Of a stretch of 64,000 bases of DNA, positions 18,702 to 34,987 are shown in pieces. The notes under the pieces were generated by a model. It ran no database searches, had not been told where the DNA came from, and saw only the letters and a list, made by a program, of their open reading frames with translations. Numbering within the stretch: the first letter of the stretch is position 1; every line of letters begins with the position of its first letter. Both the position numbers and the translations under genes were made by a program. This DNA is from an uncultured Planctomycetales bacterium (lineage in GTDB: Bacteria; Omnitrophota; Gorgyraeia; Zapsychrales; JAHFFX01), in the NCBI GenBank assembly GCA_964372915.1, contig CAYJRN010000004.1, positions 55,516 to 119,515 of the forward strand, written 5' to 3'.

Positions 18702-19958
18702 ATGTTCATTTTATACGATATTATCTTCTTTTTGTACATGGTCTTTTATATTCCTTGTCTTTTGATGAGAGGCAAATGGCATTCCGGTTTGTGGCAGCGA
18801 TGGGGCTTTTTTTCATCGGAGATGAAAAAAAGCCTAAGGCAAAAGAAGAACATCTGGGTGCATGCGGTCAGCGTCGGAGAAGTTTTGTCGGTGGCTGGTT
18901 TACTTGAAGAGCTTGCCAAACGATATCCGAATGATCACCTGGTTCTTTCAGTGGTGACTCCAACCGGTTTTCATCTGGCTCAATCCAAGTTTGGCCCCAA
19001 GATGACCGTCATCTACGCGCCTTTGGATTTTAGCTGGGTTGTGAGGCGGTACATTAATCTCATCCGTCCGAAAATCTATCTTGTGGCCGAGACTGAGATC
19101 TGGCCTAACCTATGGTCGTTTCTGCATCAAGAGAAGATCCCCATCGTGCAGGTGAACGGTCGTATTTCGACGGGCGCGTTTCGGATTTATAGGCAAGTTC
19201 GATGGTTTATAAAACCTGTTTTAAGAGGAGTCAGCGCCTTTTGCGTGCAAAGTGAGGGTGACGCAAAAAGGATTATAGAGTTAGGGGCGGATGCCGACAA
19301 GATCCATGTGGTCGGAAATATCAAGTTCGATGACCTTCCGCGAGAAATCCCATCGGACTTAAAGGGGTTAGGGTTCAAGATTGCCGATGAACTTTTGATT
19401 GCCGGCAGCACGCACAAAGGGGAAGAAGATATCATGCTCGAGATCTTCAAGGCGATTTCTCCTGAGTTTAAAGATTTGCGTCTGGTCTTGGCCCCTCGCC
19501 ATCCGGAAAGAGCCGCGGAGGTTATCCGGTTGGTCGAACGCGCCGGTTTTGAAGCGGTGAGATTTTCCCAGATCAAAAATTCAAAGATCGAACGCCAGAG
19601 CATCGTGGTGGTGGACACGATTGGTCAGCTGCGTTCCCTTTACGCTTTGGGAACAATTATTTTTGTCGGCAAAAGTCTTACCGTTGGGGGAGGGCAGAAC
19701 ATCATTGAGCCGGGATTTTTTGCAAAACCCGTTCTGGTGGGGCCCTGGATGCAGAATTTTCAGGATGTTCTGGAAATCTTTCTTCAATATAAAGCCGTGG
19801 TGCAAGTTCAGGATAAAGAAGAATTGCGCGAAGAGATCGAAAGGTTACTTAAGAGTCCTCAACAGATGGAAGTCCTCGGCTCCCAGGCTAGGAGTGTCAT
19901 CGAAAAATTTAAAGGGGCTAGGGCCCGAACCTCTAACATTATTTCCCAATACATCTAA
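18702..19958 (+). CDS. waaA: 3-deoxy-D-manno-octulosonic acid (Kdo) transferase, GT30
   Basis: …RWGFF…IWVHAVSVGEVLSVAGLLEEL…ETEIWPNL… matches WaaA/KdtA throughout. Confidence 0.85.
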   Translation: MFILYDIIFFLYMVFYIPCLLMRGKWHSGLWQRWGFFSSEMKKSLRQKKNIWVHAVSVGEVLSVAGLLEELAKRYPNDHLVLSVVTPTGFHLAQSKFGPKMTVIYAPLDFSWVVRRYINLIRPKIYLVAETEIWPNLWSFLHQEKIPIVQVNGRISTGAFRIYRQVRWFIKPVLRGVSAFCVQSEGDAKRIIELGADADKIHVVGNIKFDDLPREIPSDLKGLGFKIADELLIAGSTHKGEEDIMLEIFKAISPEFKDLRLVLAPRHPERAAEVIRLVERAGFEAVRFSQIKNSKIERQSIVVVDTIGQLRSLYALGTIIFVGKSLTVGGGQNIIEPGFFAKPVLVGPWMQNFQDVLEIFLQYKAVVQVQDKEELREEIERLLKSPQQMEVLGSQARSVIEKFKGARARTSNIISQYI

Positions 19959-19964
19959 AAATCT

Positions 19965-21038
19965 ATGAAAGAATATTTATATCGTCTGGCCACGGATCAA
20001 AAAAATGGTTTTCCCGCCCGGTGTCTCAAGGCGTTGCTCTTGCCTCTGGCAGGCTGCTATGGGTGGGCTGTGAAATTGGTATATACCTTTCATCGTTGCG
20101 GGATTTTAAGAACGCACCAGCTCCCTAAGCCGGTCATCAGCATCGGCAACATCACTTTAGGGGGGGTAGGGAAGACTCCTTTGGTGTTGCTGGTGGCGGA
20201 ATATCTCTCGAACAAGAGGGCCCGACCGGTTATTCTCATCCGCGGGTATATGGATGAGCGCCCCATCACGCTTAAAGACCCTCGCACGATGAGCGACGAG
20301 GCTTTGACGCTCGAGGCGGCCTTGGAAAACGTGCCGGTCATGATCGGCCGCGACCGCCTCAAGAGCGCCCGAAGGGCGCTCAAAGAGCATGGGGTCGACG
20401 TTTTTATTTTGGACGATGGTTTTCAGCACTGGCGCTTGCATCGAAATCTCGATATCGTCGCTATCGACACGACCAATCCTTTCGGCAATGGGCAGCTCAT
20501 TCCCCGCGGGACCCTGCGGGAACCCGTCGACGCCTTGAAGCGGGCCAATCTTTTTGTTCTGACCAAAGTGGATGCGGGAAAAGATAATATTGAGAGAATC
20601 ATAAAAAAGATTCGTGAGCTTAATTCCGAGGCGCCCATCGTCCAGGCGGTACACGTTCCCGTTGGGCTGATGAGCATCACGCATCCCAAACGGCACTGGG
20701 ATCTTCAATTTTTAAGAGGAAAGAAGGTTTGTGGTTTCTGCGGGATTGGGGATCCTTCGTCGTTTAAGAATTCACTGCTGGCGTTGGGCGCAGAGGTGGT
20801 CGCGTTTATTCCGTTTATGGATCACCATTGTTATACCGAGAGCGATATCCACAAAATACTCGACGAAGGCCTTAAAAAGGGGGCCACGACATTGATCACG
20901 ACCGAAAAAGACAAAGTTAAACTGGAAGAATTTAAGCATCTTTTTAAGGACGACCAGGAACTGTTGTTTCTTAAGATCAAAATCGAAATCACCCAAGGTA
21001 AAGATGAATTCTTTCATCGAATCACTCATATACTATAG
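19965..21038 (+). CDS. lpxK: Tetraacyldisaccharide 4'-kinase
   Basis: PVISIGNITLGGVGKTPLVLLVAEYL Walker A region of LpxK. Confidence 0.85.
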   Translation: MKEYLYRLATDQKNGFPARCLKALLLPLAGCYGWAVKLVYTFHRCGILRTHQLPKPVISIGNITLGGVGKTPLVLLVAEYLSNKRARPVILIRGYMDERPITLKDPRTMSDEALTLEAALENVPVMIGRDRLKSARRALKEHGVDVFILDDGFQHWRLHRNLDIVAIDTTNPFGNGQLIPRGTLREPVDALKRANLFVLTKVDAGKDNIERIIKKIRELNSEAPIVQAVHVPVGLMSITHPKRHWDLQFLRGKKVCGFCGIGDPSSFKNSLLALGAEVVAFIPFMDHHCYTESDIHKILDEGLKKGATTLITTEKDKVKLEEFKHLFKDDQELLFLKIKIEITQGKDEFFHRITHIL

Positions 21039-22977
21039 CGTCAGAGCTTTCGGTTTTTTTATCCGACTGCTGCCCGTTTCCGTGGCTCTGTGGATCGGAC
21101 GCGGGATCGGTACCGTCGGTTATTACTACGATGTCCGTCATCGCTCGATGGCCTATGCGAATCTGAAGATCGCTTTTGCCAGGACCAAAAGTCCACAGGA
21201 AATCAAGGAGATCACCAAGTCGCTTTTTAAGAATTATGGCCAGAATTTGATTGAGCTTTTGCGCTTGCCGTTACTCACCCGCGAGAATTACAGCGATTTT
21301 ATCCACCTGGAAGGCAAGGAACATGTTGATGAGGCCATCAAGTTAGGCAAGGGAGTGCTTTTTGTCGCGATGCATTTCGGCAGTTGGGAACTCTCGAGCC
21401 TTTCCTGTTCGATGTTGGGCAAATACAAACTTGTAGCGAAACCTCAGACCAAATTTTCACGTCTCGATGATTTTTTGAACTCTTACCGGGCCTGCAGCGG
21501 AACCATGACGGTCGCCAAGGGCTCGGGCACTCGCGAAATTTTAAGGAGTCTACGGAGCAACGAGCTCGTTGGCATCGTGGTGGATCAGGGCGGCAAAGAT
21601 GGGGCCCTGGTTCCTTTTTTCGGCCGACAGGCGTCCATGGCGGTCGGAGCGGTGAGGATCGGGCTCAAAACTGGAGTTCCTTTATGTCCGTGCGTCATCA
21701 TCCGTCAAGGAGGGCATCGACACCGGATGATCATTCATGAGCCGCTCAAGCTCATCGATACCGGTCATATTGAAAAGGATGTGATGGCAAATCTTGAGAA
21801 TATTGTTCGCTGGATGGAAGGCTACATCGAAAAATACCCTGCCGAGTATATGTGGTTCTACAAGATTTGGAAATATTCAAAGGAATCAACCACGCTCATT
21901 TTAAGCGACGGCAAGATGGGGCACGCGCGTCAATCGCAGGCCGTGGCCAGAACGCTTACGGAGGCCCTGGAGGAACGCGGGATCGCCAGTGAGGCAAAGA
22001 TCACGGAAGTTAAATTTAAAAGTCCTTTAAGGGCGCGTTTGATCTCGGTCTTAGGGTTACTGGCGAACCGGTTTTGTTTTCAGGGGCGATTGAATTTCCT
22101 GCAATGGTTTCTCACGGAAGAATCGTATCGGGACGTTATGAACTTTAAGGCGGATTTCATCATTTCCTGCGGATCTTCACTGGCGAGCTTGAATTTCCTT
22201 CTTACCATGGATCATAAGGCGAAGAACATCGCGATCCTTAAACCAGGACTTCTCAACTTCAAGAAATTTGATCTCATCATTTTGCCCAGGCACGACCGGC
22301 CGCGCGGAGAACCTTACCCGGGGAGGGTTGTGTACACGCGTATTGCCCCGAATCTTGTCGATGAAAATTATTTGAGCCAGCAGTCGGAACTTTTTTTGAA
22401 GCGTTATTCGCACCTAAGAAGCCGCGACAAGATGCGGATCGGGGTTTTACTCGGCGGAGACGCGAAACAATTGACGTTCCGTGAACCGCTCATGAAAATG
22501 ATGATCAGTCAGATCAAGCAAGCGGCAGAAGAGCTGAATGCCGATATCCTTTTTACGACCTCTCGCCGCACCTCGGCGCGCGTCGAGAATCTCGTTGTGA
22601 GGGAACTTAAAAAATTTTATCGCTGCCAGGTCTTCATCATGGCCAATCACAGCAATATTCCCGAGGCTGTGGGCGGAATTTTAGGGCTTTCAGATATTGT
22701 TGTTGTGTCGACAGACAGTATCTCGATGATCTCCGAGGCCGTGAGCGCCAAGAAAGCCACGATCGTTTTTGGATTAAAGAACTCGGCGGCCGGCATATTG
22801 AGCCCTCGAAACAAGTACGAGCTCTTCGTGGGGACCTTGAATGATGAAGGGTACGTGATATCCGCCGGCGCCAAGAACATCGGGCGGCTTATTCTGGATG
22901 TGGCGCGGTGCAAAATTCAAACAAAGATTATCCATGATGAGGGCGTGATTCTTAGCGGAGTAAGACAGATCCTATGA
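21004..22977 (+). CDS. Fusion: lipid A late acyltransferase (LpxL/LpxM family, PF03279-like) + C-terminal ELM1/DUF1022-like domain
   Basis: The N-terminal ~290 aa carry MHFGSWELSS (HX4E-like acyltransferase motif); the C-terminal ~360 aa begin …LILSDGKMGHARQSQAVARTL…, which I recognise as ELM1-family-like. Confidence 0.6.
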   Translation: MNSFIESLIYYSVRAFGFFIRLLPVSVALWIGRGIGTVGYYYDVRHRSMAYANLKIAFARTKSPQEIKEITKSLFKNYGQNLIELLRLPLLTRENYSDFIHLEGKEHVDEAIKLGKGVLFVAMHFGSWELSSLSCSMLGKYKLVAKPQTKFSRLDDFLNSYRACSGTMTVAKGSGTREILRSLRSNELVGIVVDQGGKDGALVPFFGRQASMAVGAVRIGLKTGVPLCPCVIIRQGGHRHRMIIHEPLKLIDTGHIEKDVMANLENIVRWMEGYIEKYPAEYMWFYKIWKYSKESTTLILSDGKMGHARQSQAVARTLTEALEERGIASEAKITEVKFKSPLRARLISVLGLLANRFCFQGRLNFLQWFLTEESYRDVMNFKADFIISCGSSLASLNFLLTMDHKAKNIAILKPGLLNFKKFDLIILPRHDRPRGEPYPGRVVYTRIAPNLVDENYLSQQSELFLKRYSHLRSRDKMRIGVLLGGDAKQLTFREPLMKMMISQIKQAAEELNADILFTTSRRTSARVENLVVRELKKFYRCQVFIMANHSNIPEAVGGILGLSDIVVVSTDSISMISEAVSAKKATIVFGLKNSAAGILSPRNKYELFVGTLNDEGYVISAGAKNIGRLILDVARCKIQTKIIHDEGVILSGVRQIL

Positions 22978-25073
22978 AAGTTTTGCAGATACTGCCGGAG
23001 TTGAATGTGGGGGGCGTGGAAACGGGGACGGTGGATTTTGCCAAATACCTCGCGGAGCACGGCCACCGGGCGGTGGTCGTCTCTAACGGCGGAACCTTGG
23101 TCGGTGAACTGGAAAAGATCGGGGTGAATCATTATCAGCTTCCCGTGCATAAGAAAAATTTATGGACGATGATTCAATCGGTGCGTAGACTTAAGAAAAT
23201 CATTATTGGAGAGGGGGTGGATGTCGTTCATGCGCGTTCGCGCGTGCCGGCGTGGATCGCTTACTTTGCGTGCCGTAAGACGCCGGCGGCGTTTATTACC
23301 ACATGCCACGGTCATTATCAGAAACATTTTTTCAGTCGTATCATGGGCTGGGCCAAATTCGTGATCGTGCCCAGCACCGTGATCGGTAAACATATGATTG
23401 AAAGTTTCGGCGTTTCTGCCTCAAACGTGCGTTTGATTCCGCGCAGTGTCGATTTAGAAAAATTCAATGTCCCTCGCCAGCGCGATTCTCAGAAATCCCA
23501 TTGCGTGATTTCGATGGTCGGTCGAATCACACCCTTAAAAGGCCACGAATATTTTTTGCGGGCGATGGCCAAGGTGATTCGCTATATGCCGTATGCCAAG
23601 ATTTGGATCATTGGCGACGTGCCCGAGAAAAAGGAATCGTACCGGCAAGAGCTGGAGGTCTTGGTGAAGCACTTAGGGCTATCGGAGCATGTCCAATTTT
23701 TAGGAAACCGCCGCGACATTCCCGCCTTACTGGCCAAGACCGATCTGTTGGTGCTCTCAACGGTAACACAGGAAGCTTTTGGCCGTGTGATTCTGGAAGC
23801 GCAGGCGGCCGGCGTGCCGGTCGTGGCTACCCGTGTCGGGGGTGTCGTGGAAATCATCGACGACGGCAAAACCGGAATTCTCGTCCCCCCCAAAGACGTC
23901 GAGGCCATGGCCCAGGAAGTGATGCGGGTTCTCAAGGATAAAAAGTTAGCGGAAAGTCTTGTGACCGAGGCCCGCAAAAAACTGGAAGCCAATTTTCGCC
24001 TTGAGCATATGGCCACAAAGACGATTGAGGTTTACAAAGAACTTTTGGCGTCTTTGAACATCCTGGTTATTAAATTGAGTTCTATCGGCGATGTGGTTCT
24101 GGTGACGGCGTCTTTGAGGGCTTTAAGGAAAAAGTTTCCTCATGCCAAGATTTATTGTTTGGTCGGGAAAGAATCCCGAGAGATCCTTATCCGTTGTCCG
24201 TATCTTGATGGTCTCATTGTTTATGATGTGAAAAGCTCTCCTTGGGGGTGGACAGCTTTTTTAAAGACGGTAAAAAAGCTCAGGCACTATCAGTTTGATA
24301 AGATCATTGATTTTCAAAATAATGCGAGAAGTCATTGGCTGTGTTTTTTAAGTTTCTCCAAGGAAAGTTACGGCTACAATCGCAAGTGGGGATTCTTACT
24401 TTCGAATCGGATTAGCGATAACCAAGACCCCCTCGGACCGGTAGAGCATCAATTTGAGGTTTTGAAAATTTTAGGGATTGAACTTAAAGAGGGAATTGCC
24501 CTTGAGCTGTGGCCATCAGCCAAGGATGAACAATATGTCGAGGAACTTTTGAGCTCCGAATGGCTGACCAATGCTCAAGCGATTGTCGGCATCAATCTCT
24601 GCGCGTCCGAGAAATGGAAGACAAAGAATTGGCCCATCTCCCACGTGGCGCGCCTGTGCGATATCTTAATGAGCAAGAATGTGCGTGTTTTGATTACCGG
24701 GACCGGGAAAGATCGGGAGGCGGCCCGGCAACTTTTGAAGTTAACGAAGACCAAGCCCGCGATTTTCGTCGGTAAAACCGATATCCTGCAATTAGCGGCT
24801 TTGATCAAACGCTGCAAGGTGTATCTGACGCCGGATTCGGCCCCCATGCATGTGGCCGCGGCCATGGGAACACCCTTCATCGCTTTTTTTGGGCCCACGG
24901 ATGCCCGACGCCATCTTCCGCCGGCCGCAAAATTCTCGGTCCTTAAGAAATCCATGGCCTGTTCGCCCTGTTACAGCGGAACCTGCCGGATCAAGACGCA
25001 CGCCTGCATGAAGGAGATCACCCCCGATGAGGTTGCCAAGGAGATTGGGAAATTGATGGGAAGTATCCGATGA
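22974..25073 (+). CDS. Fusion glycosyltransferase: N-terminal GT4 (RfaG-like) + C-terminal GT9 (heptosyltransferase-like)
   Basis: N-half MKVLQILPELNVGGVETGTVDFAKYL… with EAFGRVILEAQAAGVPVVATRVGG (GT4 E-x7-E region); C-half LNILVIKLSSIGDVVLVTASLRAL…PDSAPMHVAAAMGTPFIAFFGPTD (GT9). Confidence 0.7.
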   Translation: MKVLQILPELNVGGVETGTVDFAKYLAEHGHRAVVVSNGGTLVGELEKIGVNHYQLPVHKKNLWTMIQSVRRLKKIIIGEGVDVVHARSRVPAWIAYFACRKTPAAFITTCHGHYQKHFFSRIMGWAKFVIVPSTVIGKHMIESFGVSASNVRLIPRSVDLEKFNVPRQRDSQKSHCVISMVGRITPLKGHEYFLRAMAKVIRYMPYAKIWIIGDVPEKKESYRQELEVLVKHLGLSEHVQFLGNRRDIPALLAKTDLLVLSTVTQEAFGRVILEAQAAGVPVVATRVGGVVEIIDDGKTGILVPPKDVEAMAQEVMRVLKDKKLAESLVTEARKKLEANFRLEHMATKTIEVYKELLASLNILVIKLSSIGDVVLVTASLRALRKKFPHAKIYCLVGKESREILIRCPYLDGLIVYDVKSSPWGWTAFLKTVKKLRHYQFDKIIDFQNNARSHWLCFLSFSKESYGYNRKWGFLLSNRISDNQDPLGPVEHQFEVLKILGIELKEGIALELWPSAKDEQYVEELLSSEWLTNAQAIVGINLCASEKWKTKNWPISHVARLCDILMSKNVRVLITGTGKDREAARQLLKLTKTKPAIFVGKTDILQLAALIKRCKVYLTPDSAPMHVAAAMGTPFIAFFGPTDARRHLPPAAKFSVLKKSMACSPCYSGTCRIKTHACMKEITPDEVAKEIGKLMGSIR

Positions 25074-26251: not shown

Positions 26252-27265
26252 ATGAAAAAGATATTGGTTGTTAATGTCAATTGGATGGGCGATGTGATTT
26301 TTTCCGCGCCGGTTTTTAAAGCCTTGAAGAAAGCTTATCCGCGGGCTGAGATCGTCTCTTTGGCGGTTCCACGAGTTGGGGATGTTCTTGCCAGTATTCC
26401 TCATATCGATCGCGTTATTCTTTATGATGAAGAAGGCAAGGATCGCTCACCTTTGGCCAAGGGACGGTTGATTTCACAATTAAAGAAAGAACAATTCGAT
26501 ATCGCCTTCTTGCTACACCGCTCCTTCACGCGGGCGCTTTTAGTCACTTTGGCCGGAATTCCCCAGCGGGTAGGATATGACGAAAAAAATAGAGGCCGAT
26601 TTCTCACGCACAAAGTCAAACCCCTCAATGGGATTGTTCATCGCAGCGACCATTATTTACAGGTGATCGAGTCCTACGGCATCAGAGTTGAAGATCGACG
26701 CTGTGAATTGATTTTTACTGAAGAAAGTCAGCGATACGTTGATGATCTTCTTAGGAAAGAGGGTGTTGCCACAGAGGATTTTTTGGCCGTTGTTAATCCC
26801 GGCGGGAATTGGGATCTGAAGCGCTGGCCCAAAGAAAAGTTTGCCGAGCTTATTGATCGGTTGCACAAGGATTGTCAGGCCAAGGTTGTGGTTTCGGGAG
26901 CTCTTAATGATTTGAATTTGGCCAACGAAATTGCGCGGTTAACCGATCGAAAACCCATCATCACCGCCGGGAAAAGCGATCTCAATCAATTGCTGGCCCT
27001 GATGCGCCGCGCGAATGTCGTTATCTCAGCCGACTCAGGTCCGTTACATCTGGCGCACGGCGTGGGAGCGAAGGTGATCGGGGTCTTTGGCCCCACCCGA
27101 CCAGAGGTGACGGGCCCCAGGGGGAGTGGAAAAAGTTTAATCTTACAAAGGGATGTCGGATGTAACCCTGAGCCATGCTATCATCTTCAGTGTCCCGACA
27201 ACATTTGCATGCGTTCCATTAATGTGGATGATGTGATCGATGCTGTTCAAAAAATCCGAAATTAA
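26252..27265 (+). CDS. Glycosyltransferase family 9 (LPS heptosyltransferase-like), paralogue 1
   Basis: ILVVNVNWMGDVIFSAPVFKALKKAYP…DSGPLHLAHGVGAKVIGVFGPT. Confidence 0.75.
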   Translation: MKKILVVNVNWMGDVIFSAPVFKALKKAYPRAEIVSLAVPRVGDVLASIPHIDRVILYDEEGKDRSPLAKGRLISQLKKEQFDIAFLLHRSFTRALLVTLAGIPQRVGYDEKNRGRFLTHKVKPLNGIVHRSDHYLQVIESYGIRVEDRRCELIFTEESQRYVDDLLRKEGVATEDFLAVVNPGGNWDLKRWPKEKFAELIDRLHKDCQAKVVVSGALNDLNLANEIARLTDRKPIITAGKSDLNQLLALMRRANVVISADSGPLHLAHGVGAKVIGVFGPTRPEVTGPRGSGKSLILQRDVGCNPEPCYHLQCPDNICMRSINVDDVIDAVQKIRN

Positions 27266-28214
27266 AAAAATTCTCGTCGTCTCGTTAAGCAATCCGGGGG
27301 ATGTGATTCTCACCTTCCCGGTCGTTGATATTCTTCTGGAGAATTTTCCGGACGCGCCGTTGTCGGTCGTGGCGGGGGAAAAGGCAAAGGAATTCTTTAC
27401 CGGGAATCCTTTCATCCAAAATGTTTATGTCTTCAATAAAAAATCTTCGTCGTGGGATAAGCTGTCATGGGTTCTTCATTTAAGAAGAGAAAGATTTGAT
27501 CTTATCGTTGATTTGCGCAATACCGCGATTCCGTTTTTTGCCGGCGGTCAATACCGTACCAGCTATCGGATGTCTAAAAAACCTTTGATGCACATGAAAG
27601 AAAAACATTTGAACCGTCTGCGGACGGTTCTGGATTTCAGTCATGAATCGCGGACCCGTCGGGCTATTTATATTACAGCCCAAGATAAGAAATTTGTCGA
27701 TGACGTTTTCAAAAGCGGGATTGGCGAAGGGGAAACGTTCGTGGTCGTTTCGCCCGGGGCCGCCAATCATATCAAGCGCTGGAGGGAAGAAGGGTTTGCG
27801 CGCGTGTGCGAGTCCTTGGCTGCCCGGCATAAGGCAAAGATTGTTTTTGTGGGCGACCAGAATGACCGGGCCCTCGCGCGTTCGATTGCCGCTCAAATGA
27901 AGCACCCCGTGGTGGACCTGACCGCTCAAACGACGTTGCTGCAGCTCGCGGAAGTTATTCATCGCGCGAAACTTGTCATCGCCAACGACAGTGCCGTCAT
28001 GCATCTGGCCAGTTATTTGAATGTTCCAACGTTGGCCATTTTCGGCCCGACGGACGAACACAAGTACGGTCCTTGGAGTGACCGCTCTTGGGTCGTACGC
28101 AAGAATCTTTTTTGCTCTCCGTGCGAAAAATCCGGCTGCGCCTATCACCATGAATGTATGGAAGAGATTAGGTCTGAGGAAGTTTTGTCGGTCTTGGAGA
28201 AAAATTTCCTATGA
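27240..28214 (+). CDS. Glycosyltransferase family 9 (LPS heptosyltransferase-like), paralogue 2
   Basis: ILVVSLSNPGDVILTFPVVDILLENFP…DSAVMHLASYLNVPTLAIFGPTD. Confidence 0.75.
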   Translation: MLFKKSEIKKILVVSLSNPGDVILTFPVVDILLENFPDAPLSVVAGEKAKEFFTGNPFIQNVYVFNKKSSSWDKLSWVLHLRRERFDLIVDLRNTAIPFFAGGQYRTSYRMSKKPLMHMKEKHLNRLRTVLDFSHESRTRRAIYITAQDKKFVDDVFKSGIGEGETFVVVSPGAANHIKRWREEGFARVCESLAARHKAKIVFVGDQNDRALARSIAAQMKHPVVDLTAQTTLLQLAEVIHRAKLVIANDSAVMHLASYLNVPTLAIFGPTDEHKYGPWSDRSWVVRKNLFCSPCEKSGCAYHHECMEEIRSEEVLSVLEKNFL

Positions 28215-29248
28215 AAAAATATCGGAACATCTTGGTTGTCCGCACGGATCGCGTGGGCGATGTCATTCTGACAACGCCCGCCCTCGCGGCGTTGAGGGCG
28301 GGTTATCCGAAGGCGCGAATTTCCATTCTCATGGCGCCTTCCAATCTGGAGCTCGTAGAGGGAAATCCGAATTTAGATGAGGTGCTATTCGATGATCGTC
28401 AAGGAAAACATAGAGGGTTCATTGGTTTTCTAAAATTGGTGAGAGAAGTCAAGTCCAGGGCCTTTGATGCCGCGTTTATTTTTCACACCAAGAGAAGGAC
28501 GAATCTGCTTTGCTTCCTGGCGGGGATCCCGGAAACCATTGGTTATAAAAACGATAAGTTGGGTTTCTTGTTGACACGGGGGCTCATTGATACCCGGCCG
28601 CAGGGGTTAAAGCCTGAGGCGGAATATTGTCTGGATGTTTTAAGAGCGGTGGGAATTCCCATAAAAGACCCTCAACTCTTTCTTTATGTGAGCCCGGAGG
28701 CGGAACGTTGGGCCCGGAGATTTTTTTTAGAAAACGGTATCGATGATCAAGATAAGCTGGTGGCTATCCATCCGGGAGCCAGTTGCATTTCCAAAAGATG
28801 GATGCCCGAACGGTTCGCCGAAGTCGCCGACCAGTTGAGGGAAAGGCGCCCCTACAAAATTGTTTTCATCGGCTCCGCGGACAATCGAGAAATCATGCAA
28901 AATATCAAATCCGCCTTGAAAATCAAGGCGCTCGACGCGACGGGAATGACGACTTTGGCTCAACTGGCCGGCCTCTTGAAGCGTTGCGCGCTGTTGATCT
29001 CTAACGATTCCGGCCCCGTGCACATCGCCGCGGCTCTTAAGGTCCCGGTCATTTCCATCTTTGGCCGCAATCAGGCGGGTTTAAGCCCCTTACGCTGGGG
29101 GCCGCTCACCTCCAAGAGTGTCATCTTGCATAAAGAAGTGGGTTGTCCCGTGTGCCTGGCGCACAATTGTAATATTAACTTTAAGTGCTTGGAAGAAATC
29201 AAGACCCAGGAGGTTTTAGAAGCTGTTGACGCCCTTTTGAGACTATGA
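28211..29248 (+). CDS. Glycosyltransferase family 9 (LPS heptosyltransferase-like), paralogue 3
   Basis: ILVVRTDRVGDVILTTPALAALRAGYP…DSGPVHIAAALKVPVISIFG. Confidence 0.75.
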   Translation: MKKYRNILVVRTDRVGDVILTTPALAALRAGYPKARISILMAPSNLELVEGNPNLDEVLFDDRQGKHRGFIGFLKLVREVKSRAFDAAFIFHTKRRTNLLCFLAGIPETIGYKNDKLGFLLTRGLIDTRPQGLKPEAEYCLDVLRAVGIPIKDPQLFLYVSPEAERWARRFFLENGIDDQDKLVAIHPGASCISKRWMPERFAEVADQLRERRPYKIVFIGSADNREIMQNIKSALKIKALDATGMTTLAQLAGLLKRCALLISNDSGPVHIAAALKVPVISIFGRNQAGLSPLRWGPLTSKSVILHKEVGCPVCLAHNCNINFKCLEEIKTQEVLEAVDALLRL

Positions 29249-29297: not shown

Positions 29298-30323
29298 TTG
29301 ATGAGACATTATAACGAAATCATCGCCAATTTCCGCAAGAAAAGGATTTTGGTGATCGGGGACATCTTGCTGGATGAATATGTGTTTGGGAGTGTCTCCC
29401 GGGTTTCGCCGGAAGCGCCTGTCCCCATCGTGTTGCAGGAAGGGCAGCCCAGCTATACACCGGGAGGGTCTGCTAATGTCGCCAACAACCTGCAATCGTT
29501 AGGGGCCCGTGTGACGCTCATGGGAAAAGTCGGCGCCGACAAAGAAGGCGCGATTCTTCTTAAGGAGCTTAAGAAAAGAAAAATCAATACCACCGCTATC
29601 ATGGTCGATCGCAGGATTTCCACGCCCTTGAAAACTCGCATTGTGGCCCAGCACCAACAGGTTTTACGGCTCGACCGTGAAACAGTTTGCGATTTTTCCG
29701 ACGCGTCCTTAAAAGAAAAAGTCCGACGCTACTTTAAGTCATCCATCAAGAATTTTGATGCCGTGATTATTTCCGATTACGGCAAAGGGATGATTACCGC
29801 CGATCTTGTTTCGCAGGTCTGTTTGAGCGCCATCCAGGCGAAGAAAATCATTACCGTGGACCCTAAAGTCGAACACTTCACGTATTATCAAGGGGTGACC
29901 GCGATTACCCCCAACCGTAAAGAAACCGAGAACGCGATTCGTAACATCAAAATCACGCACAGCGCCGGTAAAAAGCTGGATGTCGAACACGATCGTCTGG
30001 AAACGGATGCCGACATTAAGCGGGCCGGCGAGGCAATCGTAAAATATTTGAAATTGAAAAGCCTTTTGATTACATTGGGCGAGCAGGGAATGGTCTTGTT
30101 TGAGGCGGGAAAGCCTCCGATTTATATCGATACTAAGGCCCAGGAAGTTTTTGATGTGACGGGCGCGGGCGACACGGTGATTTCGGTTTTTACTCTAGCG
30201 CTCACCGCCGGAGCGAGTCAGCGGCAGGCGGCGGATATGGCCAATTTCGCGGCCGGCATTGTCGTTGGAAAACGCGGAGCGGCGACCGTCACGCCTCAAG
30301 AACTTTTGGCGGCGATCCCATGA
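29298..30323 (+). CDS. hldE: D-glycero-beta-D-manno-heptose-7-phosphate kinase (RfaE/HldE domain I only, PfkB family)
   Basis: …ILVIGDILLDEYVFGSVSRVSPEAPVPIV…GGSANVANNL…DVTGAGDTV… PfkB ribokinase-like motifs; no adenylyltransferase domain II attached. Confidence 0.75.
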   Translation: MMRHYNEIIANFRKKRILVIGDILLDEYVFGSVSRVSPEAPVPIVLQEGQPSYTPGGSANVANNLQSLGARVTLMGKVGADKEGAILLKELKKRKINTTAIMVDRRISTPLKTRIVAQHQQVLRLDRETVCDFSDASLKEKVRRYFKSSIKNFDAVIISDYGKGMITADLVSQVCLSAIQAKKIITVDPKVEHFTYYQGVTAITPNRKETENAIRNIKITHSAGKKLDVEHDRLETDADIKRAGEAIVKYLKLKSLLITLGEQGMVLFEAGKPPIYIDTKAQEVFDVTGAGDTVISVFTLALTAGASQRQAADMANFAAGIVVGKRGAATVTPQELLAAIP

Positions 30324-31174
30324 GGACAAAAAGCCCCTCGATGATTTCAGCTCGTAATCCTTTAAAGACCAAGGCCACTGCCAAAACGCTGAAGGTCATC
30401 GGTGTCATCCCGGCCCGCTATGGTTCCACGCGTCTTGCGGCCAAGGTGCTGGCGGATCTAAACGGCAAACCGATGATCCAGCATGTGTACGAGCGCGCGG
30501 CCAAGAGTCAATATTTGGATGAACTTTTGATTGCCTGCGACCATGAACGCGTTTTGAACAAAGCTAAAGAGTTCGGCGCCCAAGCGGTTTTAACGTCGGT
30601 CCATCACGCCTCGGGCACGGAACGGATCGCGGAAGCGGTGAAATCCATCGACGCGGAAATCGTCATTAACATTCAGGGAGATGAGCCGCTCATTCATCAT
30701 TCGGTGATCGATGATTTGGCAAAAGCCCTTTTGGATGATTCCAATTGTCTTATGGCCACGGCCATCAAGCCCGTTGCCGTTGGGAGCAAGGAGTTGGACG
30801 ATCCCAACATCGTCAAGGTCGTCATTGACAAGAATCACAATGCTTTGTATTTTTCGAGGTCGTTGATTCCTTATGTACGTAAATCTAGCGAAGGTTTGAG
30901 GTACTTTAAACATTTGGGGATTTATGCCTACCGGAAAAAGTTCTTGATGGGCTTTAAGGATTTACCGAAATCGCGTTTGGAAGAAACGGAAAGTTTGGAA
31001 CAGTTGAGAGTTCTGGAAGCCGGATACAAAATTAAGACCGTTGAAACCAACATCGAGACGATCAGCGTCGATGTGGAGGAAGATATCAAGAAGGTCGAGG
31101 AGTATTTGAAAAAATCATCATCATCGGCCACAACTTACGGAGTCTCGCCGAAGGCGGACGAACGTAAGTTGTGA
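30320..31174 (+). CDS. kdsB: 3-deoxy-manno-octulosonate cytidylyltransferase (CMP-Kdo synthetase)
   Basis: VIGVIPARYGSTRLAAKVLADLNGKPMIQHVYERA; ~30 aa N-terminal extension; the 3' end overlaps the start of repeat E copy 1. Confidence 0.85.
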   Translation: MRTKSPSMISARNPLKTKATAKTLKVIGVIPARYGSTRLAAKVLADLNGKPMIQHVYERAAKSQYLDELLIACDHERVLNKAKEFGAQAVLTSVHHASGTERIAEAVKSIDAEIVINIQGDEPLIHHSVIDDLAKALLDDSNCLMATAIKPVAVGSKELDDPNIVKVVIDKNHNALYFSRSLIPYVRKSSEGLRYFKHLGIYAYRKKFLMGFKDLPKSRLEETESLEQLRVLEAGYKIKTVETNIETISVDVEEDIKKVEEYLKKSSSSATTYGVSPKADERKL

Positions 31175-31309
31175 GCCGAACTCGACCCAGCACTTATTTT
31201 GCGACACGGTGTTAAAGCCAAAATAAGTGCTGGGTTCAATTCCGTCACAGACTTACGTCGCTCCAAATGGGAGCTTCCGTAAGTCTGGACGTCATTGAAG
31301 GAACATTAA
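31150..31309 (+). repeat. Intergenic repeat element E, copy 1
   Basis: …gacgaacgtaagttg…cccagcacttattttg-cgacacggtgttaaag-ccaaaataagtgctggg (16-bp perfect stem) + GGTTCAATTCCG + cagacttacg…cgtaagtctg + gtcattgaagga + ATG of kdsA. Confidence 0.7.
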
Positions 31310-32131
31310 ATGTCACGGATTGTGAATGTCGGGAAAATCAAAATCGGAAACGGGACGCCGCTGGTTCTTATCGCGGGCCCGTGCGTGATTGAAAGTCGCG
31401 CCCTTGCCTTCAAGGTCGCTTCCGAAATTAAAAAGATCACCGCCGCTTTGAAGATTCCATTCATTTTTAAAGCGAGCTATGACAAAGCCAACCGGACATC
31501 CCTGGCGTCATTCCGCGGCCCCGGGATGTCCCAAGGCTTGGAAGTTCTAAGGGAAATCAAGGAACGACTGGGTGTTCCGGTATTGAGTGACGTGCATAGT
31601 TCTCAAGAAGTACAAGAGGCGGCGCAAGTGCTCGATGTGTTACAGATCCCGGCGTTTCTTTGCCGGCAAACGGATATTCTTATTGCGGCCGCTCAAAGCG
31701 GAAGAGTGGTAAATATTAAAAAGGGCCAGTTTCTAGCGCCAGGGGATATGCAACAGGTCGTTAAGAAAATCGAATCCGCCGGCAATCGCAACATTCTTTT
31801 GACCGAACGAGGGGCCAGTTTCGGTTATAACAATTTGGTCACGGATTTTCGCTCGCTTTCGATTATGCGCAAGACCGGTTATCCGGTTGTGTTCGACGCC
31901 TCTCACAGCGTTCAGCAGCCCGGCGGTTTGGGGAGCGTCTCCGGGGGAATGAGCGAGTTCATTCCGTTATTAAGTCGCTGCGCCGTGGCGGCCGGCTGCG
32001 ATGCTGTTTTCATGGAAGTTCATCCTAATCCTAAGAAAGCCTTGTCGGACGGGCCCAATATGCTCAGGCTTGACCAGCTGAGGAAACTGCTCGTTGATTT
32101 AAAAGCGATTGATGCAATTGTGACCTTGTGA
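31310..32131 (+). CDS. kdsA: 2-dehydro-3-deoxyphosphooctonate aldolase (Kdo8P synthase)
   Basis: MSRIVNVGKIKIGNGTPLVLIAGPCVIES… DAHP/KDO8P synthase family. Confidence 0.9.
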   Translation: MSRIVNVGKIKIGNGTPLVLIAGPCVIESRALAFKVASEIKKITAALKIPFIFKASYDKANRTSLASFRGPGMSQGLEVLREIKERLGVPVLSDVHSSQEVQEAAQVLDVLQIPAFLCRQTDILIAAAQSGRVVNIKKGQFLAPGDMQQVVKKIESAGNRNILLTERGASFGYNNLVTDFRSLSIMRKTGYPVVFDASHSVQQPGGLGSVSGGMSEFIPLLSRCAVAAGCDAVFMEVHPNPKKALSDGPNMLRLDQLRKLLVDLKAIDAIVTL

Positions 32132-32143
32132 TTTTTAAAAGCC

Positions 32144-33100
32144 ATGTCTCTTAAGCTTGCCAAAGATGTCATCAAAATCGAAGCCGCCGCGGTGAAAAAT
32201 CTCGCGCGTGCGGTTGACGGGAATTTTCTCAAGGCCGTTGAAATGATCGTCAAGTGCAAAGGCCGGGTGATCGTGACCGGCATGGGCAAGGCCGGCATCA
32301 TCGGCCATAAGATCGCCGCGACACTTTCTTCGACGGGAACGCCCAGCATTTGGATGCATAGCGCCGAGGCCGTGCACGGGGATATGGGTCAAGTCACGCG
32401 CAATGACATCTTAATTCTCTTGTCGAATAGCGGCGAGACCGATGAAACCAAAAGACTTTTACCTCTCATAAAAAAAATCGGTGCCAAGATCATTGCCATG
32501 ACGGGCAATACAAAATCAACTTTGGCCAAGCACAGCGATGTGGTGTTAAACGTATCGGTGAGAACAGAAGGCTGTCCTCTGGGGCTCTCCCCGATGGCCT
32601 CCACGACGGCAACGTTGGTTATGGGCGATTGCTTGGCAGCGTGTCTCATTGAGCGCAAAGGCTTTAAAAAAGAAAATTTCGCTTTTAATCATCCGGCGGG
32701 AATGTTGGGGAAGAAATTGCTCTTGAGAGTAGAAGACATTATGCGCACTGGTCCTACGTTGGCCAAAGTGAAAGAACAGATGCGCGTGAAAGACGTTTTG
32801 CTTTCCATTACCCGCGCCCGCTGCGGTTCGGCATGTGTCATTGATGCTAAAGGACGGTTGGTAGGGATTTTCACCGATGGGGATTTGCGCCGGCATCTGG
32901 AAACGGACTCGGATCTTTCGTTGCGGAAAGTCAAGGACGTGATGACGCGAAAACCCACGACCATTGAGAAAGACAAATTGGCGACCGAGGCCTTAAGGAT
33001 TTTGCAGGATAAGAAGATCGACGAACTGCCGGTTGTTTCCAAAGGAAAATTGGTGGGACTCTTGGATGTTCAGGATTTATTGAAAGCCGGACTGGTATGA
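32144..33100 (+). CDS. kdsD: Arabinose-5-phosphate isomerase (SIS + tandem CBS)
   Basis: SIS domain (…GRVIVTGMGKAGIIGHKIAATLSSTGTPS…) followed by a CBS pair. Confidence 0.85.
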   Translation: MSLKLAKDVIKIEAAAVKNLARAVDGNFLKAVEMIVKCKGRVIVTGMGKAGIIGHKIAATLSSTGTPSIWMHSAEAVHGDMGQVTRNDILILLSNSGETDETKRLLPLIKKIGAKIIAMTGNTKSTLAKHSDVVLNVSVRTEGCPLGLSPMASTTATLVMGDCLAACLIERKGFKKENFAFNHPAGMLGKKLLLRVEDIMRTGPTLAKVKEQMRVKDVLLSITRARCGSACVIDAKGRLVGIFTDGDLRRHLETDSDLSLRKVKDVMTRKPTTIEKDKLATEALRILQDKKIDELPVVSKGKLVGLLDVQDLLKAGLV

Positions 33101-33152
33101 AGTTCATAATTATTTGTAGTTGCCATCACGATTTTTAAAATAGGAGGTTAAA

Positions 33153-33338
33153 ATGATATCTCCCAAAAAACAAATTGCCAAGATCATCAAAGAACAGCCG
33201 GAGGACAGTTCTTATGAGGAAATTCTCCGCGAGCTGGCTTTTGGCCGGATGGTGGATCGCGGGTTGGCCGATTCTAAGGTGGGTCGAACCATCAGCAATG
33301 CGGAAATGAAGCAGAGGATCAGCAAGTGGCGGAAATAA
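33153..33338 (+). CDS. Putative type II antitoxin (ParD/RelB-like partner of the downstream ParE)
   Basis: 61 aa; overlaps the downstream RelE/ParE toxin gene by 13 nt in the classic antitoxin-toxin order. Confidence 0.5.
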   Translation: MISPKKQIAKIIKEQPEDSSYEEILRELAFGRMVDRGLADSKVGRTISNAEMKQRISKWRK

Positions 33339-33628
33339 GGTGGACCCACGAAGCGCACAAGTGGCTTAAGGACATTCACGATTACATCGCCGTTGATAAT
33401 CCGATGGCGGCACATAAAGTCATCGAAGATATATTTCAAAAGGTTCAAGTGTTGCGACGTTTGCCTGAAATTGGTTTCCGGTATGATCGGTATCCTGAAT
33501 TAAACATTCGAATTTTGTTATATGGGCATTACCGGATTGCCTATTGGATCAAGTCAGTCGATCAGATCGATATTTTGGGAGTATTTCACGGGGCACTGGA
33601 GATTGATAACTATCTCAAGATGAATTAG
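33326..33628 (+). CDS. parE: RelE/ParE-family type II toxin
   Basis: 100 aa; …ILGVFHGALEIDNY… C-terminal ParE/RelE signature; size and operon context fit. Confidence 0.7.
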   Translation: MAEIRWTHEAHKWLKDIHDYIAVDNPMAAHKVIEDIFQKVQVLRRLPEIGFRYDRYPELNIRILLYGHYRIAYWIKSVDQIDILGVFHGALEIDNYLKMN

Positions 33629-33629
33629 C

Positions 33630-34157
33630 ATGCAATCCATGAATATGAAAGAAAGACTTAAAAAGATTAAACTTTTAATCATGGACGTCGACGGTGTTTT
33701 GACTGACGGCAGGATCGTCGTTGATGAGCGCGGCCGAGAAACCAAGAATTTTGACGTGCAGGATGGGTTTGGCATCGTTGTCTTCCAGCGCGCCGGTTTT
33801 AAAACGGCGATCCTGAGCGCCGCCCGGGCCTCGGCGGTCGTCAAGTACCGCGCCCGCGACCTTGAGATCGACCAAGTGCATTTGAACGCGTATCCTAAGA
33901 TTGATGCCTACAAAAAGATTTTAAGAGCCCTTAAACTCAACGATGAGGACGCTTGCTTCATCGGTGATGATTTGCCGGACCTGGAAGTTTTATCGAAGGT
34001 CGGTTTCGCCGTGGCTGTCCCTTACGCGAGGGCGGAAGTCAAAAAAGTCGCCGACTATATCACTAAGAAACAGGGCGGTAACGGCGCGGTCCGGGAAGTG
34101 ATTGAGCTCATTATGAAGACCCAAAACCTGTGGCCGAACCCTTCAGGGAAAAGGTGA
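33630..34157 (+). CDS. kdsC: 3-deoxy-D-manno-octulosonate 8-phosphate phosphatase (HAD family)
   Basis: LLIMDVDGVLTDGRIVV…GDDLPDL… HAD motifs I and IV; kdsD-kdsC-lpt context. Confidence 0.85.
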   Translation: MQSMNMKERLKKIKLLIMDVDGVLTDGRIVVDERGRETKNFDVQDGFGIVVFQRAGFKTAILSAARASAVVKYRARDLEIDQVHLNAYPKIDAYKKILRALKLNDEDACFIGDDLPDLEVLSKVGFAVAVPYARAEVKKVADYITKKQGGNGAVREVIELIMKTQNLWPNPSGKR

Positions 34158-34987
34158 CGATCGTGTTGAACCGAGTGTTTTTCATTATGCTTGTTTTTTT
34201 TAGCGGTGTTGTCTTTTTACACGCTGAAGACAGTCCGCAGCAATTCCAGGGATTCACCCTCGATGGGTATACGGATGGGGGGCACAAGGCCTGGGACGTG
34301 AAAGGCGATACCGCCGATGTCAGCGGTAATACCATCGAACTCACCAACCCCGATGCGAATTCCTATGGGAAGGATAATGTCAATATCAAGGCGAAAACCG
34401 GATCCATCGATAAAGAAAGCGGCCAGATGCATTTAGAGAAGGATGTGGTCATCACCACTCAAAGCGGAGCCAGGATGACGACGAATTCCCTTGATTGGGA
34501 ACGCGAAAAAGATTTGGTCACTACCAACGATAGAGTGAAGATCACGCGCGACGATATTATCGCCGAGGCGATGGGCGCGATAGCCCATCCCAATCTGCAG
34601 ACGGGCCAGATGAACAAGGACGTCACTGTTGAGCTGAGACCCAAACCCGATAAGGACGGAAATCCACAGTTGCCCGTGACCATCACTTGCGACGGGCCGC
34701 TGGAGATCGATCAATTGAAACAACAGGCGACCTTTAACAAGAACGTGGTCGCGGTCCAGGAAGGCCGGGAACTCAAGGCAGACAAAGTTGAGGTCTTCTT
34801 CGATCAGACCACCAAGCAGATTAAACAGATGATCTGCACCGGCCACGTCGCAATCACGCAGGGCGGCAACACGACTTATTCCGAATCCGCCGTCTACACC
34901 GCAGGAGACCAGAAGATGATTTTGTCGGGAAGACCGAAGCTCATTTTACAGACGCAAGGAGGCCAATTTGCATCTCCTGGAAACTAA
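34130..34987 (+). CDS. LPS transport periplasmic protein, LptC/LptA (OstA-like) family
   Basis: N-terminal hydrophobic anchor/signal, then an OstA-like beta-jellyroll region; located between kdsC and lptB as in kdsD-kdsC-lptC-lptA-lptB operons; start uncertain (GTG 34154 or 34163 likely). Confidence 0.6.
   Translation: MAEPFREKVTIVLNRVFFIMLVFFSGVVFLHAEDSPQQFQGFTLDGYTDGGHKAWDVKGDTADVSGNTIELTNPDANSYGKDNVNIKAKTGSIDKESGQMHLEKDVVITTQSGARMTTNSLDWEREKDLVTTNDRVKITRDDIIAEAMGAIAHPNLQTGQMNKDVTVELRPKPDKDGNPQLPVTITCDGPLEIDQLKQQATFNKNVVAVQEGRELKADKVEVFFDQTTKQIKQMICTGHVAITQGGNTTYSESAVYTAGDQKMILSGRPKLILQTQGGQFASPGN

Follow-up and report, generated by a model that had tools for sequence, protein, structure and literature searches.

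GtrOC1 of Acinetobacter baumannii, predicted as a glycosyltransferase in 2014 (PMC4172580), is KdoT, a Kdo-III transferase acting on Kdo2-lipid IVA, as established by genetics in 2024 (PMC10936431) and by biochemistry in 2025 (PMC12856342). The enzyme (A1S_2903) uses CMP-Kdo:Kdo2-lipid IVA as its donor/acceptor pair (PMC10936431, PMC12856342), with a measured preference for a tetra-acylated acceptor. The first biochemical assignment of the bacterial ELM1-like family dates from late 2025 and so far covers Acinetobacter and one Rickettsia homologue only, the R. rickettsii protein, which partially complements a delta-kdoT mutant (PMC12856342, PMC10936431). An SRRT motif shows no variation among KdoT homologues; in KdoT models it touches the carboxylate of the Kdo in CMP-Kdo, and R180 is required for full activity (PMC12856342). 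KdoT in vivo also requires active GnaT, a dependence that is still unexplained, and a search for its catalytic base has identified none (PMC12856342). Further Mito_fiss_Elm1 paralogues (GtrOC14, 19a-c and 22) reside in outer-core loci of A. baumannii (PMC4172580) and presumably have other specificities than KdoT. Arabidopsis ELM1, the namesake of the Pfam family, is a mitochondrial fission factor; according to work cited in PMC10936431, plant ELM1 probably delivers dynamin-related proteins to the sites at which mitochondria divide. LpxL (HtrB) of E. coli and LpxM of A. baumannii (PDB 5kn7) are Kdo-dependent lipid A secondary acyltransferases, which are single-domain proteins of ~300-330 aa. 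Here we describe an ORF in which an LpxL-family domain and an ELM1-family domain are joined in one polypeptide.

The ORF belongs to an LPS operon of an Omnitrophota bacterium. It lies at 21004..22977 of the window, the whole 64-kb stretch of DNA that was analysed (all features below are on the + strand), and encodes 657 aa plus stop. It is uninterrupted in the ORF list and starts with ATG, with AAGG 7-8 nt 5' of this codon, and its stop shares an ATGA with the start codon of the gene that follows. Pfam detected two domains: PF03279 (Lip_A_acyltrans; 161.7 bits against a cut-off of 22.3, E 2.9e-47) covers residues 10-290, and PF06258 (Mito_fiss_Elm1; 149.6 bits against a cut-off of 27, E 1.5e-43) covers residues 306-620. 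These results bear out a sequence-only reading that had proposed a single 657-aa ORF with an N-terminal PF03279-like late acyltransferase and a C-terminal ELM1/DUF1022-like domain, the latter through the very domain scan that had been named as its refuting test. The full-length fusion was modelled confidently by AlphaFold2 (pLDDT 89.6, pTM 0.85). A public protein (P0001) is 100% identical to it, and the identical protein occurs on 4 contigs. Current annotation names one half at a time, as 'ELM1/GtrOC1 family putative glycosyltransferase' by NCBI and as 'Kdo2-lipid IVA lauroyltransferase' by JGI.

An ORF of this kind could also arise as an assembly or sequencing artefact, in which a lost stop or a frameshift joins an adjacent lpxL and ELM1-like gene. 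To address this issue, we examined homologues and the inter-domain junction. Both domains were present in all 120 of the best 90%-identity homologue clusters, at 51-64% identity to the fusion ORF, and in 116 of the 150 best representatives at 50% identity. The count of clusters, which were drawn from NCBI, JGI, ENA and Logan assemblies, is a lower bound, so the fusion exists in at least 120 independent clusters at 90% identity. This conservation of the two-domain layout excludes chance or assembly error. The junction (residues 279-310, PAEYMWFYKIWKYSKESTTLILSDGKMGHARQ; 21838..21933) has no flexible linker and was free of indels over its 32 residues in all 47 aligned sequences. It was the best-conserved stretch of the protein, the mean pairwise identity being 76% there, 59% in the N domain and 50% in the C domain, and W284-Y291 were nearly invariant. 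Neither a stop codon nor a homopolymer run was found across the junction DNA (21850-21930). Some database entries of ~355-368 aa hold the ELM1 part alone, as separate genes would predict; however, three of them fall in 90%-identity clusters of full-length proteins (642-667 aa), and these three are therefore regarded as fragments. An artefact, which we consider practically impossible, was thus ruled out by family conservation and clean junction DNA, and the earlier concern about a missing stop or frameshift is answered by the same two results, the conservation being phylum-wide. All named fusion homologues belong to Candidatus Omnitrophota. We conclude that the LpxL::ELM1 fusion is real and conserved across this phylum, of which the architecture is typical.

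The N-terminal half begins with hydrophobic helices (residues ~1-42; 21004..21129). Its Kyte-Doolittle 19-residue mean peaks at 1.7 around residues 13-31, and helices are predicted by AlphaFold2 at residues 3-22 and 25-42. A hydrophobic N-terminal anchor is typical of LpxL-family enzymes (LpxL/LpxM), and by analogy this segment presumably anchors the fusion in the inner membrane. The LpxL-family (lysophospholipid/lipid A) acyltransferase domain (residues 10-290; 21031..21873) covers profile positions 16-294 of the 295 in PF03279. It matched A. baumannii LpxM (5kn7) both by profile (E 7.7e-19) and by Foldseek (E 6e-14, target TM 0.70), and the Foldseek match to PatA had a target TM of 0.82. The HFGSWE motif (HX4E type; 21373..21390), already spotted in the sequence-only reading, lies at H124-E129, and H124, G126, W128 and E129 were invariant in an alignment of 47 homologues. 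We take H124/E129 to be the catalytic dyad, as in LpxL, LpxM and PatA. None of 17 matches to NCBIfam equivalogs (LpxL, LpxM, LpxP) reached its cut-off, the best being NF006270 with 152.7 against 248 bits. To judge from these profile matches, the N domain is a member of the PF03279 family whose specific lipid A step, acyl chain and position are not assignable from NCBIfam scores.

The C-terminal half (residues 295-657; 21886..22974) was assigned to the ELM1/GtrOC1/KdoT-like GT-B glycosyltransferases by PF06258 and fold, and its homologues carry the NCBI name given above. In the predicted structure it has the two Rossmann-like lobes of a GT-B architecture, as had been guessed beforehand. It opens with ILSDGKMGH at residues 299-307, in agreement with the opening first reported for it, and within the N-lobe motif DGKMGH (21907..21924) and just beyond it D302, G306, H307 and Q310 were invariant in homologues. 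Counted from the start of the domain, D302 and H307 fall at positions 8 and 13, which matches the numbering of the candidate bases D8/H13 in A. baumannii KdoT (PMC12856342), a correspondence by position and motif only. The LPxHD motif contains an HD dipeptide (H430-D431; 22291..22296), in which H430 did not vary among the 47 homologues and D431 was conserved in 90% of them or more; LPxHD aligns with LPRHD/LPKHD of an alphaproteobacterial clade, and KdoT has H109-D110. The TSRRT motif (T519-S520-R521-R522-T523; 22558..22572) was invariant in the 47 homologues and is conserved in the alphaproteobacterial clade as well. Together with GDSxSMxSE, the motifs DGKxGH, LPxHD and TSRRT were invariant or nearly so in this alignment. 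By analogy with KdoT, TSRRT is read as the donor-positioning arginine motif of the ELM1 family.

We asked whether such a domain might be catalytically silent, with a scaffolding or regulatory role in which it brings downstream core enzymes to the LpxL platform or sets their pace there. The unexplained need of KdoT for active GnaT in vivo and the missing catalytic base would suit this role, as would plant ELM1, thought in the account cited above to be an adaptor and not an enzyme. By contrast, SRRT, which matters for KdoT catalysis, and the other cleft motifs are invariant in a domain of only ~50% overall identity, and the GT-B cleft is intact in a model with a pLDDT of 91.9. A silent domain is therefore very unlikely. 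Nothing in the bacterial gene context points to a role like that of plant ELM1.

The relatives of the C domain outside Omnitrophota are distant. Homology to stand-alone ELM1 proteins of Alphaproteobacteria, including one labelled Rickettsiaceae, extends over the whole domain (hhalign probability 100%, E 1e-41, 288 columns); identity to this clade is 27-29%, and BLASTP against one of its loci, L001, gave 29% identity (E 5e-21). The same locus was the one distant hit of a contig scan with the C-domain sequence, in which poorly conserved peptides served as query. When L001 was used to seed a homologue search, the matches were alphaproteobacterial proteins plus one 'Rickettsiaceae bacterium', and the R. 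rickettsii protein was absent among them. Relative to the alphaproteobacterial proteins, the acceptor lobe of the Omnitrophota domain is longer by an insertion of ~25-30 residues. A PDB sequence search found no solved structure of the ELM1 family.

The gene context was then compared. Upstream lie waaA (Kdo transferase; 18702..19958; PF04413, E 1e-58), which has the same position in a related locus (L002), and lpxK (lipid A 4'-kinase; 19965..21038; PF02606, E 9e-83), whose 3' end overlaps the start of the fusion by 35 nt. Downstream, and ATGA-coupled to the fusion, lies a two-domain GT4::GT9 glycosyltransferase (22974..25073), which also directly follows the ELM1 domain in loci L002, L003 and L004. 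The genes for CMP-Kdo supply, kdsB, kdsA, kdsD and kdsC (30320..34157; PF02348, PF00793, SIS+CBS and HAD), belong to the same gene string. The operon reads waaA-lpxK-fusion-GT4::GT9-GT4-GT9x3-PfkB-kdsB-kdsA-kdsD-kdsC-lptC/A-lptB, and synteny is retained in a relative at 54% identity. In sister Omnitrophota lineages the same ELM1 clade is fused to LpxK instead, in the same operon slot. This alternative fusion ties the ELM1 domain to the lipid IVA/Kdo2-lipid IVA stage. WaaA::LpxK proteins are also found in Omnitrophota.

Fusion to LpxK, the step right after LpxB, together with a 64-kb window in which no lpxB was found, might suggest that the ELM1-like GT-B domain stands in for another GT-B step of the Raetz pathway in Omnitrophota, for example the disaccharide synthase LpxB. 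We regard this replacement as unlikely in the extreme.

A stand-alone Omnitrophota ELM1 paralogue was observed in an O-antigen-type region, adjoining an msbA-like gene, which indicates that the ELM1 family is not limited to Kdo-III transfer.

Whether the donor of the fused domain is Kdo can be weighed from the same data. The fusion may be real and yet use a non-Kdo sugar (hexose, hexuronic acid or HexNAc) with the inner core or lipid A itself as acceptor, being KdoT-like in fold and membrane context and not in donor specificity. Consistent with this are the several outer-core candidates of A. baumannii besides GtrOC1, the 27-29% identity to the nearest non-Omnitrophota clade, the paralogue in the O-antigen-like region and the acceptor-lobe insertion. 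However, the donor-lobe SRRT, which is the element modelled on the Kdo carboxylate in KdoT, is invariant, and both the position immediately behind waaA-lpxK and the link with kdsABCD speak for a step at the Kdo stage. We consider a non-Kdo donor possible, although rather improbable. Kdo is the most likely donor sugar of the ELM1 domain, a choice that we infer, as sequence alone is not predictive of it.

The reading that we favour, with a probability of roughly 0.6, is that the ORF encodes a bifunctional LPS inner-core/lipid A enzyme, in which a membrane-anchored LpxL-type acyltransferase and a KdoT-type glycosyltransferase both act on Kdo2-lipid IVA, the added sugar being most probably Kdo. 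Architecture, conservation, folds, motifs and operon context, as observed here, are its bases; membrane topology, common acceptor, donor sugar, reaction order and inter-site channelling are what we infer from them. The N-terminal hydrophobic helix would hold the fusion at the inner membrane, on its cytoplasmic side. Residues ~10-290 would form an acyl-ACP-dependent secondary acyltransferase with the H124/E129 dyad, linked by a rigid and nearly invariant junction to residues ~295-657, a predicted inverting GT-B glycosyltransferase whose TSRRT arginines would position the nucleotide sugar. The common acceptor of both domains would be the WaaA product, Kdo-substituted lipid IVA. To this acceptor the LpxL domain would add a secondary acyl chain, and the ELM1 domain would attach the sugar that comes next in the inner core. 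That sugar is most probably another Kdo, drawn from the CMP-Kdo that the kdsABCD genes of this operon supply. Core extension may then fall to the GT4::GT9, GT4 and GT9 enzymes encoded downstream.

A bolder proposal, which we put forward as doubtful, is that the rigid LpxL::ELM1 polypeptide works as an assembly line with two sites, which keeps hold of Kdo2-lipid IVA during glycosylation and acylation and perhaps adds a substituent other than Kdo-III. If so, inner-core and lipid A maturation would have a fixed order and stoichiometry, and the ELM1 domain might install a substituent not yet seen at the Kdo2-lipid IVA stage. Sister lineages with LpxK::ELM1 in place of LpxL would then make lipid A without that secondary acyl chain, and the envelope chemistry of Omnitrophota would be distinct from proteobacterial models.

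Phylum-wide fusion to LpxL, or alternatively to LpxK, provides independent Rosetta-stone evidence for the role of the ELM1 family, indicating that in a distant and uncultured phylum the family acts at the lipid IVA/Kdo2-lipid IVA stage. This evidence is consistent with the tetra-acylated acceptor preference measured for KdoT. The sequence-only reading had called the bacterial ELM1 family one of unknown function, which is outdated now that GtrOC1 is KdoT (PMC10936431, PMC12856342). Its suggestion that the fusion ties ELM1 to late acylation of lipid A agrees with the existing KdoT assignment, but this is not the first link between ELM1 and lipid A. Neither enzymatic activity is new in kind: both halves come from families with known roles, and no long-standing question is opened. 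The fusion does offer a natural construct for studying the coordination of inner-core glycosylation and late acylation. In the literature we found no paper on an LpxL::ELM1 or LpxK::ELM1 fusion, on Omnitrophota LPS genes (lpxB, lipid A, Kdo) or on the pairing of an acyltransferase with a glycosyltransferase on lipid A.

Compared with known systems, the N domain shares with LpxL and LpxM the PF03279 family, the HX4(D/E) dyad, the N-terminal membrane anchor and the fold, and as with them its gene adjoins waaA and lpxK; unlike them, the fusion has a second, predicted catalytic domain. The C domain resembles KdoT in PF06258, GT-B fold, SRRT, the D...H motif at 8/13, the HD dipeptide, the lack of a transmembrane segment of its own and the LPS inner-core context, and the KdoT acceptor, Kdo2-lipid IVA, is also the LpxL substrate. 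KdoT, however, stands alone as a ~35-kDa protein encoded in an outer-core locus, whereas the Omnitrophota domain is C-terminal on LpxL (or LpxK in sister lineages) and carries the acceptor-lobe insertion, the two having been compared by motif and position. Stand-alone ELM1 proteins of Alphaproteobacteria and Rickettsiales share ILxDG, LPxHD, GGxsK, SRRT, GDSxSMxSE and KH..F with the C domain; the alphaproteobacterial ones are unfused, ~327-340 aa long and have Asn at the position of H307, and the L001 gene adjoins coaD, outside any LPS operon. With Arabidopsis ELM1, only PF06258 is common. Other fused LPS enzymes are HldE and ArnA, and these, like WaaA::LpxK and LpxK::ELM1, resemble the present fusion in combining consecutive or neighbouring pathway steps from adjacent operon genes in one polypeptide, each with a pair of activities different from that of LpxL::ELM1.

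The ORF at 21004..22977 (+) is single and uninterrupted, encodes 657 aa, carries AAGG 7-8 nt 5' of its ATG, and overlaps by its stop the start of the next gene (ATGA). The sequence-only reading had proposed that it joins an LpxL-type to an ELM1-type domain, and a Pfam scan detected both: PF03279 (Lip_A_acyltrans) at residues 10-290 (E 2.9e-47) and PF06258 (Mito_fiss_Elm1) at residues 306-620 (E 1.5e-43), each far over its curated cut-off. A missing stop or frameshift at the junction had also been considered. The junction DNA (21850-21930) contains neither a stop codon nor a homopolymer run hinting at a sequencing slip. Among 5.8 billion proteins searched, the identical protein appeared on four contigs, along with at least 120 further clusters (51-64% identity, about 650-660 aa), all with both Pfam domains and with every named member from Candidatus Omnitrophota. 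With the C domain alone as query, HMMER was run over all 1.84 billion 50%-identity representatives and found 1725 relatives, 219 of them at E <= 1e-30; the LpxL domain was also present in 116 of their 150 best representatives. Named sources of the most divergent fusions (32-35% identity) are likewise Omnitrophota. Three short, seemingly stand-alone ELM1 entries fall in 90%-identity clusters with full-length fusions and are thus fragments. Across 47 aligned fusions, residues 279-310 (...YMWFYKIWKYS-xxxxxx-ILSDGKxGH...), which form the junction, showed zero indels and the highest mean pairwise identity in the protein (76%, versus 59% in the N and 50% in the C domain). Given the recurrence, the indel-free conserved junction, the clean junction DNA and the fragmentary nature of the short entries, we rejected an assembly or sequencing artefact, whose probability we consider negligible; LpxL::ELM1 is a true fusion, and an old one. 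An AlphaFold2 model of the full chain (pLDDT 89.6, pTM 0.85) suggests, by its pTM, that the two domains hold a defined relative arrangement.

The N-terminal half matched Acinetobacter baumannii LpxM (5kn7) by profile (E 7.7e-19), and its model superposed on LpxM and mycobacterial PatA (Foldseek E 6e-14 to 1e-11). Its HX4E dyad (H124...E129) is invariant among the 47 fusions, and its first ~40 residues are hydrophobic helices of the type anchoring LpxL-family enzymes to the membrane. Because this half reached none of the NCBIfam equivalog cut-offs, we classify it as a late acyltransferase of the LpxL family without assigning its chain or position specificity.

The bacterial ELM1 family, taken by the sequence-only reading to be of unknown function, has already been assigned one (PMC10936431, PMC12856342). 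A. baumannii GtrOC1 was predicted to be a glycosyltransferase in 2014 by Kenyon and colleagues because its Pfam family, Mito_fiss_Elm1, belongs to clan CL0113 (PMC4172580). The same protein, A1S_2903, was shown in 2024 to be required for any core past Kdo2 (PMC10936431), and a December 2025 study renamed it KdoT and showed that, once purified, it uses CMP-Kdo to add Kdo to Kdo2-lipid IVA (PMC12856342). KdoT was inactive on lipid IVA without Kdo and preferred tetra-acylated to hexa-acylated acceptors; the SRRT motif is family-wide, its arginines being necessary for activity, and a Rickettsia rickettsii homologue complemented partially (PMC12856342).

A sequence search of the PDB found no solved structure of any ELM1-family member; modelled separately, the C-terminal half reached a pLDDT of 91.9. 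TSRRT (residues 519-523) is invariant in the 47 fusions, and an invariant D8...H13 (domain numbering) and an HD dipeptide mirror, by position and motif, D8, H13 and H109-D110 of KdoT. Aligned profile to profile with an alphaproteobacterial clade of unfused ELM1 proteins, one member of which is named Rickettsiaceae, the C domain matched over 288 columns (probability 100%, E 1e-41), with ILxDG, LPxHD, SRRT and GDSxSMxSE common to both. Because of these motifs and this match, membership of the C domain in the ELM1/GtrOC1/KdoT family is well supported. We put the probability that it is a KdoT-like Kdo transferase at about 0.6; a non-catalytic domain seems improbable, and to a substitute for LpxB we give hardly any credence. 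Transfer of a sugar other than Kdo, which we judge rather unlikely, is favoured by the further Mito_fiss_Elm1 paralogues of A. baumannii, which sit in outer-core loci (PMC4172580), and by a stand-alone Omnitrophota paralogue in an O-antigen-type region. The latter gene (357 aa, L005:8001-9074, JAUYMS010000040.1) overlaps the 3' end of a gene for an msbA-like ABC exporter and neighbours Wzy_C, Wzm/Wzt and methyltransferase genes. It gives the family a second setting linked to LPS in Omnitrophota, and its specificity possibly differs from that of the fusion. Another stand-alone ELM1 protein (340 aa, L001:7794-8816), from an AT-rich MAG, is encoded directly 3' of coaD and 5' of a gene for a 2243-aa repetitive membrane protein; the MAG's label, 'uncultured Rhizobiaceae', may be doubtful because relatives of this protein include a 'Rickettsiaceae bacterium' entry. 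In E. coli, coaD is kdtB and adjoins waaA.

The fusion is the third gene of a long co-directional string that starts with waaA (from 18702, +) and lpxK (from 19965, +). Directly 3' lies a two-domain GT4::GT9 transferase (22974-25073, +), followed by GT4, three GT9 heptosyltransferase-like genes, a PfkB kinase, kdsB, kdsA, kdsD, kdsC, an LptC+LptA ORF and lptB. GT4::GT9 (699 aa; GT4 at residues ~1-358, heptosyltransferase-like GT9 at ~362-694) has an ATG overlapping the stop of the LpxL::ELM1 gene and is kept in three related loci, L002, L003 and L004 (698-714 aa). With it, the operon holds four GT9 domains. The stand-alone GT9 genes and the PfkB-family kinase (26252-29248 and 29298-30323, +) had no adenylyltransferase partner for the kinase among the ORFs scanned; the kinase possibly performs the HldE/HldA kinase step. 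The 285-aa ORF before lptB (34130-34987, +), LptC-like at residues 39-161 and LptA/LptD_N-like at 191-272, may encode a fused LptC-LptA bridge protein.

A relative (L002, 1.17-Mb contig) has the same leuA-to-kdsD order, its fusion protein being 54% identical to the one in the window. Sister Omnitrophota lineages have this operon slot without an LpxL domain, and ELM1 is fused straight to the LpxK C-terminus (~700-740 aa, at least 35 clusters, including P0158, P0285 at L003:10001-12136 of CP070837.1, and P0189 at L004:3438-5543), with GT4::GT9 following at once. In these lineages waaA and lpxK are separated by genes for a CBS protein and a Na+/H+ exchanger. Across the window and the three related loci examined, the ELM1 domain always lies immediately upstream of GT4::GT9 and has LpxL or LpxK as its N-terminal partner; both partners are membrane-anchored enzymes whose substrates are lipid IVA-type intermediates on the cytoplasmic side of the inner membrane. 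Other Omnitrophota carry WaaA::LpxK fusions (PF04413+PF02606, 757-817 aa; P0314, P0316, P0320, P0321, P0323, P0325, P0327, P0339 and P0351), and in P0308, an unusual protein of 879 aa, LpxK is accompanied by PolyA_pol/CCA-adding domains and an HD domain. Fusion of genes within the lipid A operon seems to recur in this phylum.

E. coli LpxL works only once WaaA has added Kdo. KdoT acts on Kdo2-lipid IVA and prefers it ahead of late acylation (PMC12856342). On these two grounds the domains of the fusion most likely draw on one substrate pool. Architecture, conservation, folds, motifs and synteny are observations; in the scheme proposed here, topology, common acceptor, donor, reaction order and any channelling are inferred. 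The LpxL anchor would tether the otherwise peripheral GT-B domain to the membrane, and the rigid junction would fix how the two active sites lie relative to each other. One protein would attach both a single secondary acyl chain and a single inner-core sugar; the sugar is most probably another Kdo, provided by KdsA-D from the same operon. Core extension would then pass to GT4::GT9, whose translation is coupled to that of the fusion.

Public databases already hold the fused proteins, each annotator naming one half only. Full-text literature searches found no paper on an LpxL::ELM1 or LpxK::ELM1 architecture or on LPS genes of Omnitrophota, and fusions go unmentioned in the KdoT paper (PMC12856342). 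Both domains come from characterised families, and the novelty is a domain architecture built from known kinds. The fusion, a natural bifunctional construct that will not surprise a specialist, lends independent genomic support to the new KdoT assignment. In A. baumannii the enzyme acting straight after KdoT, GnaT, is also a GT4, as is the first domain of the GT4::GT9 protein that follows the fusion in the window.
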